Assembly: GCA_951406725.2 (NCBI GenBank)
Contig: OX597823.1
Coordinates: 11,532,001-11,596,000, forward strand
Reading direction: 5' to 3'
DNA from: Octopus vulgaris
Lineage: Eukaryota
Length of the DNA stretch: 64,000 nt
Below, in pieces: positions 1,181 to 53,867 of this stretch. The first letter of the stretch is position 1; the number at the start of each line of letters is the position of its first letter. Position numbers and translations under genes: made by a program. The notes under the pieces were generated by a model that saw nothing but the letters and a program-made list of their open reading frames with translations, was not told the DNA's origin and ran no database searches.

Positions 1181-1210
1181 AAATAAATCATTGGAAATTT
1201 ATGTATGAAG
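1181..1210 (+). CDS. Candidate 30-nt microexon in the Ig1-Ig2 intron, (E)INHWKFMYE
   Basis: Branch-like CCTAAT at 1150-55; ttttcttcttctacctacAG acceptor; donor AAG|GTAAAA. Only the phase-1 frame is free of stops, and phase 1 is what the downstream LAR exon needs. Confidence 0.5.
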
Positions 1211-20181: not shown

Positions 20182-20777
20182 TACACCTAGTGTACCTTTT
20201 TCTTGCAAAATGGGTTTGTTCCACTTAAAATTGGTGGCAGTGTTGGGACTATACTTTCATATGATATTTGGTTCTTACTCCTCTACATTTTGAAGTGGTG
20301 TGAAACCGTTACTTCTATTGATTCTGTCACATCAACTTTGCAGAGTTGATGTGGCAAAATACCAGGCATATAGTGTTGTGGATTGACGTATCTTCAGTTT
20401 ATAAAAAAAATCAAAATTCCTCATCATTTCTGTTTGTTGCTACATTCTAAATTCAAATTCTGCCAAGGTTGACTTTTGCTTTTCATCCTTTCAGAGTCGA
20501 TAAAATAAGTACCAGTTGAACACTGGGGTTGATGTAATCTACTTAACCCCTTTCCCAAAATCATCGCCCTTGTGCCAAAATTTGAAACCATTATTATATT
20601 TCAAAAATTTAAATCTTTCTCTAGAATTATATTATAGAAAATTTAATTTACTTCGAATGTATTATCACTTCAATCACTGTCTTCAAATATAAATTAAAAT
20701 AGGGGTATTTTTTTTTTATTGTTTTCTCCCATAAATTAATTGTTTTGTCTTCCCTTTTTTGTTTTCTGCATTATCAG

Positions 20778-20797
20778 AAAATCCTTCATCAAGCATA
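20778..20797 (+). CDS. Candidate 20-nt microexon, (E)NPSSSI, phase 1 to 0
   Basis: About 73 nt AG-free and pyrimidine-rich, ending ttttcTGCattatcAG; donor ATA|GTTAGC. Confidence 0.45.
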
Positions 20798-21069
20798 GTT
20801 AGCTGAAATGTTTAACAAAATTTGTAAAATAAGTTATGTTTGTTCTCTGTGAGGAAAAGGCAGGTTTGAGCTGAAAAATGCCGTTCAAGGCACTGCCCGA
20901 AACGTCAGAGCCTGCAGCTCTTAAACAACACACAAACTTCTGTTATTTTATAAATTTTATCAACTGTATTTTGCTAAATGCCCATACTAGCTTCCTCTAA
21001 TTCTACTTTTTATTTTTTTATTTTTTTTATTTATCTTTTGCAATTTTTCTTTCCTCTAATGCGTAATAG

Positions 21070-21079
21070 TTGTTAAGTG
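21070..21079 (+). CDS. Candidate 10-nt microexon, LLS(G), phase 0 to 1
   Basis: About 77 nt AG-free U-rich tract ending ctctaaTGCgtaatAG; donor GTG|GTAAAC. Together with 20778-20797 it totals 30 nt in frame. Confidence 0.45.
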
Positions 21080-21465
21080 GTAAACATCAGCTTTTTAATT
21101 AATATTCTAAAAGTGAGCTTGGCCTCTGTTAAGAGCCTAACCTTCGTATCAAAGTTAGCTGTTTTTAATAAACTCATTCACATAACAACCAGCAGATTGA
21201 AACCCTGTTTATTTTATATTCTTTCTGTTTTGTTGAACAAAATGATAGAATATTGTATTGTTTTTTAAAAACATTCATTAATCTGTATTCCATTACTCTT
21301 CAACAATGTTACTGCTTCAGTTGCCTTACTTCAAGAACTTGTCAAACTGAGATAACAAACACTAAACAACTTTCCAATTAAAATCTTATGCAGGCAATTT
21401 TCAAAACCTGTTTATTGCCAAAATAAATATTTTACAATGAAGCTGTGTATTATTAAGGATATTTA

Positions 21466-30100: not shown

Positions 30101-30793
30101 AAACTATTTTGCAGTTATATTTAATGCAAATATCTTTCCAACCCCTGTTTTCCAGTTTTTAATTGCAACTCTATGGTAATCACAAATTAACGTTCTTTGT
30201 CTTTATTGCCTTTCATCAATCACTGGGAAGAGAGAAATATGTGCTTGTATGTGGTTGTATATATGTATGTGGTGCTAATTTCTTCTTTTGTCTCTAACCA
30301 GTCATCACTGAATAGACCTAAAGGGAAAGGTGTTCCAACTATGACCAATCTATTTTGTTTGCAGGCAGTAAAACTTACTTCTCCCTATAAAACAGTAGGG
30401 TGTAATTTGTAGGAGCTTTGACTTCTATTTACAGCAGATCAGCCAACCACATTGATACACCTTTATTCTCTTGCTTCTAATTTGTTTCAACTTACTGGTG
30501 AAGTGAGCTATTGATATATTGTCTTTAGAAATATTTCATTATGGAGATTCAGTCAATTGCTTCTCTGATAAACTTGTAGAAATGCTTATTCCAAAGTTAT
30601 CAACTTCGGTTGTTTTTATGTTTCACATATGTCAATTCAGGAAAATGGTCTGCATCAAGTTTGTGATAAAATCAATGTATTTTATCATATCTCCATTGTT
30701 TGGGATTTGAAATGTCTCCATTATTTTAATCTGAAAGTGTGAGAATTATTGCCTAATATTTAATGTTCTGTTTTCTTTTTCTTTTCATTCCAG

Positions 30794-30970
30794 GAATGCC
30801 TGAAGGCTACCCTAGAATTACTGACCACCCATCATTAAAGGCTGTGGAGAAAGATAGGAATACTATCTTACAATGCCATGCAAAAGGGGAGCCAAAGCCT
30901 TCAATAATTTGGTTAAGAGATTTCATCCCAGTTGACCTCAGCAATCCACGTTTAACTTTACTTGAAGGGG
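30794..30970 (+). CDS. Lar: LAR-family receptor PTP exon, N-terminal part of Ig2 (GMPEGYPRITDHPSLKAVEKDRNTILQCHAKGEPKPSIIWLRDFIPVDLSNPRLTLLEG)
   Basis: Pyrimidine tract then CAG (AG 30792-93); donor G|GTGAGT at 30971; 177 nt, phase 1-1. Translation matches the LAR Ig2 pattern P.G(F/Y)P.I...P.LK.VE..R....C.A.G.P.P.I.W.(K/R)DF.PVD. Confidence 0.95.
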
Positions 30971-31649
30971 GTGAGTGCAGTTATTGTTCCCTCATCCTAT
31001 ATTTAGTATTTGTTGTTGTTTTAATGAAGTTTTAAAAAAATGGAAAAACTTAAATGATTTTTATACGTATCTGAGATTCTATCACATTATTGAAGTAAAA
31101 GCATATAGGAAATTTAAAATGTTCAATGTATCGAAATCTTTAACTCCACTTGAAATGTGTGTGTGCGTGATTGTATGTATGTATGTGTGTGAGTGTGTAG
31201 TGCGTGAGTGTATTCTCTGATAAACCTTTTTGCACTTGGTGATAAGATAAATCCCTTGCTTGTGTTGCTTGTATTATTGCCTTGCTTTTCAAATTTATAT
31301 AAGTTGACTTTTGTTAAATCGACAGATCTTAGATATCTAAAACTTTAGACACCCTCACTTTTTCCTTACCAATTATGAAATAATTAATGCTTTTTCTTTT
31401 TTTTGCACATTTTATTCAATTGTTTCAACATCAAAATTCATAATTTTCTTTGTTATAAATTGCTTGCAGTATGGTCACATTACATATTAAATTCATGTTT
31501 TTTTTTAAAATCTATATTTCTGTGAATTTGCACCCAAAACTGTTTATTTCTCACAACTTCTTAGAATTTACAATCTAATTGTAATTAGATTGAATTACAT
31601 TGATTTAAATCTTAATTAGTTTGGTAAGTCTAGTTCATTTCATTTTCAT

Positions 31650-37615: not shown

Positions 37616-37726
37616 GAGAACTACAAATAGAACGCAGCCAAGAATCTGACGTTGGCAAATATGAATGCGTTGCAGAAAATGAACATGGAGTTGATTATTC
37701 TTACGCGGCTAACTTATATGTTAAAG
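37616..37726 (+). CDS. Lar: LAR exon, C-terminal part of Ig2 ([37 protein letters not shown])
   Basis: Acceptor aaacAG at 37614-15; donor AAG|GTTTGT at 37727; 111 nt, phase 1-1, in frame with both neighbours. Matches G.LQIE.S.ESD.GKYECVA.N..G..YS..ANLYV. Absent from the ORF track because it is too short. Confidence 0.95.
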
Positions 37727-46079: not shown

Positions 46080-46349
46080 TTCGCCGTGTTCCACCTCACT
46101 TTACTATGCCACCTGAAAGCGTTGAGGTGCAACCAGCAACAGATGTCAATCTAACCTGTGTGGCTGTTGGTTCCCCTATGCCAGAAGTAAGGTGGCGTCA
46201 GGGTAACCGAGAACTAACCGATGAAAATGAAATCCCAATTGGTCGAAATGTACTGGAATTAAAAAATGTTCTAGAAACCAAAAACTATACCTGTGTCGCA
46301 TCGTCCGACTTAGGAATTATTGAAGAAATAGCCCAAGTGAAAGTAACTG
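46080..46349 (+). CDS. Lar: LAR exon, Ig3 ([42 protein letters not shown]...[23 protein letters not shown])
   Basis: Acceptor ttgcttcAG at 46078-79; donor G|GTGAGT at 46350; 270 nt, phase 1-1. Carries the LAR Ig3 motifs [30 protein letters not shown] and NYTCVA. Confidence 0.96.
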
Positions 46350-52332: not shown

Positions 52333-53867
52333 AAAGCATGATAATTAAAAACTTAAAGATGCATAGATAACAAAATACTTACTTGTGTGTGTGTATTTAA
52401 ACATGTGCATCTATTTTCATAGATATGTGTATGCACATATAAGCATATTTACATACACATGTATATATATATATGTGTATATATGCACATGCATAGACAT
52501 ACACACACACACACACATACTTATATAGATTCATATATATATATATATATTAATACATATGCTTGCTCATATACCACCACATATACCCCACACATATACA
52601 TATGTGTAATTACTTATACATGTCCTTGTGTATGACAAATGATAGAGCTGCAAAAGTCATTATTACTAATTTCATTGCAGTTACATCCTGTTAAATGTGT
52701 GAGGTAGTAATGGAACATACAGTAAAATTATATACCTATGTAGATGGGTGTGTGTATGCATGTATATAAATAATGTTTTGGTGAGTGTAGCAGGAAAGCA
52801 AGATATGCTAAAATTTTGGAACCGCCAAATGCACTCTGACTGGGATAGTCAAATGGTGTTTACATCTTGTAGCTGTCATTTTTGAAGAGAGATTGCTTAC
52901 ATAAAGACATCATGCTTAACGAATATGTTTACTACACCTTGTTTAGGTGTGTAGAAGGAGAACGAAACAGTTTTATAAAAATATTTTATTGCAAAATGTG
53001 TGAAATATTCACAGACTGTTTTGATGATGAAAATCTTAGAATGTTATTTGTATGTTTATAACCATCGTTTTATAGGGTTGGTGGGTATTACTGTCATAAG
53101 CCATTCCCTGCTTTGTTGAACATCTTACTTACAAAGCTTATTGTATTTCACAGTGTTTGAGCTGACAACAAGAAATGAACTTAGAGAGAACAAATTACAT
53201 AGAACTTTCAAAGCATTTCAGATCTTGTGTGTCTCTGAAATTAATTTTCTCAGCTGTATGTTTAGTTTGCTTCGTAGCCATGTGATTGCAGGTTCAGTTC
53301 TCCTGCGTGGCACCTGAGGCAAGTGTCTTCTCTTGTAACTCTAGACTGACAAACATTTTGTCAGTGGATATGACAGACAGATACTGAAGAGAAACCTACT
53401 GTATGTGTTTTTCTTTACATCTGTGCTTCTGTGAAAGTTTGGACATTAAGATGATGTTGATGTTGGTATTTTTCCTATCAATAAATTGTCTAATTGCTTC
53501 TTGCTTTTAAAGCCATGTAAGTTTATAGACCCCTCAGTTGAGAGACTAATAAGGAATAGTTAGCATTGAGGTCCTCCGCCTGTAACATGTGTACCTAGTC
53601 TGTGCTAGCTTGGAAAAACAGGTAAAACAAGAAAAAAAAGTTATAGGTGTTGCTTGAGAAAGACCTTGTTTAGAAGAAAATCATTGTCATTGACTAATTT
53701 CACTTTTTTTTTTCTCAAATTTGTTTCACAATATTACTTATATGAATCATAACATCAATTACATGAAATACAAACTGTCCACTTGCAAGTGGTAGTGTGC
53801 TTTGCTTGTTAGAATATTTATATATTTTTGGATAAGCAAATTTATTTGCAAGTGATTTCAAAGTTAA

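Follow-up and report, generated by a model that had tools for sequence, protein, structure and literature searches.

Vertebrate members of the LAR family of receptor phosphatases (PTPRD, PTPRS and PTPRF) carry short optional inserts in their Ig region, encoded by mini-exons that decide which synaptic partners bind (PMC12598525, available sections). In the same sections of that source, meA is placed inside Ig2, meB at the Ig2-Ig3 hinge, meC in FN5 and meD before D1, with none of the four between Ig1 and Ig2. This agrees with an initial annotation of the octopus locus described here, which had stated that the classic vertebrate mini-exons sit elsewhere. The meA element itself is described as two adjacent microexons, meA3 and meA6, each of which keeps the reading frame alone. 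The Ig1-Ig2 unit of LAR is V-shaped and bears heparan-binding lysines (PMC5645493, available part). A second relevant system is the eMIC microexon code (Srrm234 / SRRM3/4); the fly eMIC exons described in the accessible text of PMC8797185 combine weak donors with long AG-free zones and a UGC close to the acceptor. In octopus, splicing is reported to be highest in neural tissue, in a paper whose main text, as far as available, leaves microexons unmentioned (PMC9699675), and the accessible main text of a bioRxiv report that covers O. bimaculoides (10.64898/2026.09.05.749416) makes no mention of PTPR. Our literature search returned neither a LAR linker exon in octopus or molluscs nor a frame-coupled microexon pair, although supplements and subscription papers may hold either.

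The stretch of octopus DNA analyzed here, referred to as the window, is 64 kb long (C10, 11532001-11596000). Three coding exons in it belong to a LAR-type receptor phosphatase; all are constitutive and on the forward strand. Spliced alignment to the protein P0018 places the first part of Ig2 at 30794..30970 and Ig3 at 46080..46349, and spliced alignment likewise places the second part of Ig2 at 37616..37726. Octopus RefSeq proteins are 100% identical to the Ig2 exon of the window, which also matches the structures of PTPdelta, PTPsigma, LAR and Dlar. After 320 kb of flanking DNA had been added to the window, the gene could be mapped across 285 kb from Ig1 to the stop codon, with 24 of the 28 exon junctions resolved exactly. 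The exon map, Pfam lists, names of identical proteins and fold match together reveal three Ig domains, FN3 repeats, tandem phosphatase domains and a V-shaped Ig1-Ig2 unit, confirming the earlier assignment to the LAR-type (IIa) class. Exon mapping also confirms that the intron of interest divides Ig1 from Ig2. Its length had been given as 30 kb and is in fact about 85.9 kb, the Ig1 exon ending 55 kb upstream of the window.

In this intron, the initial annotation had flagged two microexons of 20 and 10 nt that would keep the reading frame only together. Acceptor A (20703..20777, forward strand) comprises a T-rich AG-free zone of 73 nt, a TGC at 20767-20769 and the AG at 20776-20777; it is followed by the 20-nt candidate exon (20778..20797), whose GT at 20798-99 lies in a very weak donor (ATA/GTTAGC). 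Acceptor B (20991..21069, same strand) has a T-rich AG-free zone of 77 nt, a TGC at 21060-21062 and the AG at 21068-21069; it precedes the 10-nt candidate exon (21070..21079), with a plausible donor (GTG/GTAAAC) at its GT at 21080-81. A gap of 272 nt separates the two candidates. The AG-free zones of more than 70 nt and the GT 20 or 10 nt downstream of the AG are thus as first described. The TGC is likewise present ahead of each AG, ending 6 and 5 nt before it rather than 7-8 nt. CTAAY is absent within 100 nt of acceptor A, which has one CU tetramer, and occurs at -73 and -14 of acceptor B, which has two. The surrounding 801-nt island, originally called repeat-free, is single-copy in the O. 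vulgaris genome, where its one match is itself. The same island holds a third acceptor-like site with a TGC at 21321-21340, with an AG-free zone of 70 nt and a very poor donor (-4.9). We also considered the pair as a duplicate of the conserved 30-nt exon discussed below and rejected this origin, as the local alignment score of 25 was equalled by 13 of 50 control windows.

Splice sites were scored with matrices (PWM) built from the 24 resolved junctions of the gene, a small set. Acceptors A and B score 5.0 and 6.8, compared with leave-one-out values of -0.3 to 19.6 and a median of 7.6 for the 24 constitutive acceptors; they are therefore middling and not the strong 3' splice sites initially claimed. 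The donor of the 20-nt candidate scores -2.5 on the 24-site matrix, at the 40th percentile of the 17,653 GT dinucleotides found across the gene, and ranks below all 29 known donors (24 constitutive at 2.7-11.5, five of annotated microexons at 4.7-10.5). The donor of the 10-nt candidate, at 4.3, falls inside the known range and at the 93rd percentile of the same GT sites. The best-scoring GT within 330 nt of acceptor A lies 66 nt past the 20-nt donor (CAG/GTTTGA, 6.2) and would define an 86-nt alternative exon (20778..20863, forward strand) with a stop as its ninth codon.

Virtual splicing bears out the frame relationship that had been proposed. Either exon alone shifts the frame and leads to a stop 132 or 167 nt ahead of the next junction, while joint inclusion leaves the frame open and encodes (E)NPSSSILLS(G). 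Single inclusion could accordingly be read as the actual function of the sites: one or both acceptors would be real and would produce frameshifting poison exons, either the 10-nt exon alone or the 86-nt exon, reducing full-length LAR through NMD or releasing an Ig1-only fragment. The 10-nt site carries a complete set of signals for this (acceptor, CTAAY at -73, TGC and donor), the best donor of acceptor A encloses a stop, and the RefSeq O. sinensis isoform X9 (P0016) begins at the Ig2 Met, the start expected if just the 10-nt or just the 20-nt exon were included. That start, however, fits equally well with a 28-nt exon near Ig1 or with another 5' end, and truncated RefSeq isoforms were set aside as support for the candidates because they do not discriminate between these origins. 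Comparable single sites are also frequent on either strand, and no such junction occurs in the contigs of the four mapped runs, an insensitive set; we regard poison exons as unlikely.

A further reading makes acceptor A or B the start of an alternative last exon, which would end the transcript after Ig1 and give a short secreted Ig1 protein. Read-through from either acceptor stops within 4-9 codons, with AATAAA at 21167 and 21422, although this hexamer is common in DNA of 30% GC. The database protein P0034 does end shortly after Ig1, but from another site, and is a 5'-partial model. We consider an alternative last exon very improbable.

With respect to the eMIC code, both candidates share the long AG exclusion zone, the UGC near the acceptor and the weak donors of fly eMIC microexons, a likeness at the level of motifs, and differ from them in that each breaks the frame singly. 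Their exclusion zones exceed the constitutive median of 49 nt, and 5 of the 24 constitutive acceptors reach at least 71 nt. UGC near the acceptor is likewise found at 18 antisense decoys. Furthermore, none of the five annotated microexons of the LAR gene carries a spaced TGC, which argues that UGC is not a mark of the known microexons of this gene and makes it a weak argument here, where it had been invoked as the mark of neural microexons. An exon-sized Pfam match to SRRM_C (eMIC-type) above the curated cut-off was found at L038:1501-1635 (C25) in the O. vulgaris genome; since the genome encodes such a segment, eMIC-type control is possible in this species.

We assessed the chance expectation of the motif set by scanning the 285 kb at loose thresholds (acceptor score of at least 3, AG-free zone of at least 50 nt, a spaced TGC, and a GT no more than 30 nt away), which returned 23 sense versus 18 antisense sites; at thresholds fitted to the candidates, about 7-8 sense sites remained versus 3 antisense. 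Single motif-set sites do not exceed chance, and those of candidate quality appear on either strand at a rate of roughly one in 12-16 kb. For pairs, the sense sites were placed randomly 5000 times, and pairs within 400 nt that are in frame only together were counted. The probability of such a pair per gene was 0.002 at the thresholds fitted after the fact, and 0.07, 0.12 and, at the loosest, 0.39 at others. Across five threshold sets the candidate pair was the sole sense pair, except in the loosest set, where a second appears, and in the set with the strictest donor requirement, a floor at the weakest constitutive value, where it drops out; antisense pairs of this kind were found at none of the five settings. 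The candidates also form the closest in-frame-only-together pair in the gene. The pair exceeds chance modestly: by the shuffle probabilities it stands out within the gene, yet it would be expected by chance in a genome scan. The original caveat was that short AG..GT pairs arise by chance; in the shuffles such a pair arose in 0.2-39% of cases, depending on the thresholds.

These considerations bear directly on the reading originally put forward, in which an eMIC-type regulator would drive joint inclusion of the 20- and 10-nt exons in neurons, adding an octopus-specific 10-residue insert alone or beside the conserved 30-nt exon. Consistent with it are the paired AG-free zones and spaced TGCs, the fit of these features and of the weak donors to the fly eMIC exons (PMC8797185, accessible text), the single-copy island, the SRRM_C segment, the excess of sense over antisense sites with the low shuffle probability at the fitted thresholds, and the precedent of tandem linker microexons, both in this gene (30 + 6 nt between FN1 and FN2) and in Mytilus (5 + 10 residues between Ig1 and Ig2). 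The joint length also equals that of the conserved 30-nt exon, and every combination with that exon stays open. On the other hand, joint inclusion would depend on the gene's poorest donor despite a far better one close by, the 272-nt spacing offers no evident coupling mechanism, and every tandem microexon recorded here keeps the frame singly, as do meA3 and meA6 in vertebrates, unlike the octopus 20+10 pair. If real, the pair would be an unusual AND-type switch; for now it is a motif-level candidate, and we judge coupled inclusion to be quite unlikely.

Protein and transcript records were examined for both candidate exons, and neither has support of either kind. The candidate peptide, which is low-complexity, Ser-rich and without the conserved W/Y of the insert described below, was found in none of 244 proteins by motif search and in none of the 221 LAR proteins that span the linker, 13 of them from Octopus; these 221 are those in a set of 256 whose sequence extends across both flanking cysteines, and 12 of the 27 proteins in the main octopus cluster fall outside the counts. 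A 50%-representative search, dominated by multi-Ig proteins, contributed 13 LAR-like matches to this comparison, none with the peptide. A metagenome scan with a 22-nt candidate motif gave one match, with unrelated flanks, which we attribute to chance. Gene-annotation pipelines often miss exons as short as 10 nt. As to transcripts, the 24 listed runs were assembled contigs, none recorded as RNA, and four of them, from four studies and three organisms, were aligned to 30640-31120. In all four, the contigs cover the first Ig2 exon exactly and reach a 3' loose end at the start of the second, and one contig per run joins Ig1 directly to Ig2, which demonstrates the form that omits all linker exons. 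The known 30-nt exon is absent from these contigs too; because it was missed in the same four sets, the contig result is insensitive and says nothing against the pair. The pair is thus real as sequence, unproven as exons and not refuted.

The linker does contain an optional exon, located elsewhere in the same intron. At 1181..1210 (forward strand), a 30-nt phase-1 exon encodes the 10 residues EINHWKFMYE, with a donor AAG/GTAAAA and a CTAAT branch-like motif at -30; its splice sites score 7.1 and 6.8 on the 24-junction matrices. It corresponds to the optional 10-residue insert of O. sinensis and O. bimaculoides RefSeq isoforms and is skipped in others. The initial annotation was therefore right that a switch exists in the Ig1-Ig2 linker, in the form of an optional 10-residue insert, and wrong about its source, which is 1181-1210 and not the 20+10 pair. 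Like the pair, this exon lies between Ig1 and Ig2 and hence at none of the positions of meA to meD. With an AG-free zone of only 20 nt and no TGC in 100 nt, it lacks the UGC and long zone of eMIC exons and does not look eMIC-type. Neural bias of its inclusion is putative, though likely. Overall, we favor the view that the flagged sites are probably look-alikes that are not spliced as a pair, and that the real optional exon of the linker is 1181-1210, encoding a predicted beta-hairpin.

Of the 221 linker-spanning proteins, 66, from 16 mollusc species, contain an insert of 10-11 residues whose final motif is W-x-x-x-Y-[E/K]; its Trp and Tyr are invariant in all 66. The carriers include two octopuses, the gastropods Haliotis (3 species), Patella, Littorina, Babylonia, Pomacea and Physella, and the bivalves Pecten, Mizuhopecten, Argopecten and Mytilus (3 species). 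Forms with and without the insert both occur in 11 species by manual tally. These records are database annotations, mostly RefSeq models, and a separate exon is demonstrated in octopus only. Among the proteins examined, none from the chiton (8), Lineus (6), Lingula (5), Capitella, arthropods or sharks (13) showed the insert, nor did those from Argonauta, cuttlefish-type species, oyster, Gigantopelta and Lottia, each represented by few isoforms; Mercenaria and Nymphon have other, longer Ig1-Ig2 linkers. In the Mytilus RefSeq models, two short inserts occur in this same linker, singly or together, so that the M. galloprovincialis linker carries none, 5, 10 or 15 additional residues in four combinations (P0068, P0211, P0213, P0220). 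Each Mytilus insert keeps the frame alone, and the 5-residue one lies upstream of the conserved insert and is unlike the candidate peptide. Judged from these annotations, the 30-nt exon is a mollusc-wide optional insert, already present in RefSeq models, at a hinge where no vertebrate mini-exon is known.

To relate the insert to the receptor fold, we compared AlphaFold2 models of Ig1-Ig2 with and without it, built from a 57-row alignment that contains the insert in only 13 other rows. Mean pLDDT is 96.1 with the insert (92-98 across the insert itself) and 95.4 without. In the longer model, strands at 97-101 and 104-107 flank a turn formed by Asn-His-Trp, at a position that is coil in the short form. 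Foldseek overlays on human LAR Ig1-2 (3pxh and 2yd5) gave an rmsd of 1.3 Å with the insert and 1.2 Å without, and across the LAR, PTPsigma, PTPdelta and Dlar structures (3pxh, 2yd5, 2yd2, 3pxj) the octopus models overlay at 1.2-2.4 Å with or without it. Both domains superimpose on the known Ig1-Ig2 structures, in line with the V shape assumed at the outset. By alignment length, these PDB entries are without a 10-residue insert, and the octopus hairpin is a prediction. The 30-nt exon is thus predicted to add a beta-hairpin while leaving the Ig1-Ig2 V unopened. Because the hairpin sits on an unchanged V, the model of this evidenced insert shows no longer or looser hinge, contrary to the hinge lengthening originally suggested.

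The look-alike reading of the flagged sites, with 1181-1210 as the optional exon, suggests a mechanism in which inclusion would place a beta-hairpin on the unchanged V, the hairpin could add or mask ligand-binding surface, and splicing would thereby select binding partners, much as meA and meB, at positions of their own, do in vertebrates. Given the invariant Trp and Tyr, and by analogy with meA and meB, we infer that the likeliest role of the insert is that of a partner-selecting surface. The insert is kept in cephalopods, gastropods and bivalves, with the predicted hairpin at the receptor tip. A conserved optional insert at a hinge untouched in vertebrates and insects would, by the same analogy, point to a separately evolved molluscan splice code for neural wiring.

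The gene contains further short exons. Annotated microexons of 42 nt before Ig1 (L009:3408-3449), of 15 nt in the Ig3-FN1 linker (L017:6607-6621) and, as a tandem between FN1 and FN2, of 30 and 6 nt (L024:3864-3893 and L024:8647-8652) were located, and O. sinensis models use the FN1-FN2 microexons singly or together. About 1.0 kb after the Ig1 exon, at L009:5957-5980 (C10), we noted a candidate 24-nt in-frame linker exon encoding the eight residues EYRYIDIF; its acceptor is very strong (15.4, AG-free zone of 91 nt), and its donor (TTA/GTGAGT) scores 0.0. Read-through at this site terminates after 10 codons and agrees with the end of P0034 apart from one change, which indicates that the stretch is kept in another octopus. 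The linker could conceivably be a microexon hot spot, combining an old 30-nt hairpin exon, a newer octopus 24-nt exon and an eMIC-driven 20+10 pair acting as an AND gate, in which single inclusion would lead to NMD; such an arrangement would be a mollusc counterpart, at a different hinge, of the vertebrate meA/meB partner code. We hold this composite reading to be quite unlikely.

Other elements of the gene lie outside the Ig1-Ig2 linker. An exon in the Ig3-FN1 intron (L016:5374-5754) encodes a different N-terminus that includes an additional FN3-like domain; the resulting LAR isoforms, annotated in two octopus species (P0010, P0011), lack the Ig domains. Within the intron interrupting Ig2, the window contains a TGC-bearing acceptor (8.3, AG-free zone of 119 nt) followed after 27 nt by a weak donor (31470-31496), at what we take to be the intron position of vertebrate meA; by its frame, inclusion would create a stop at the junction. 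Finally, a 4-nt AG..GT site at 53513-53516 of the window, in the Ig3-FN1 intron, has a TGC and a strong donor (9.2), would shift the frame and probably reflects chance.
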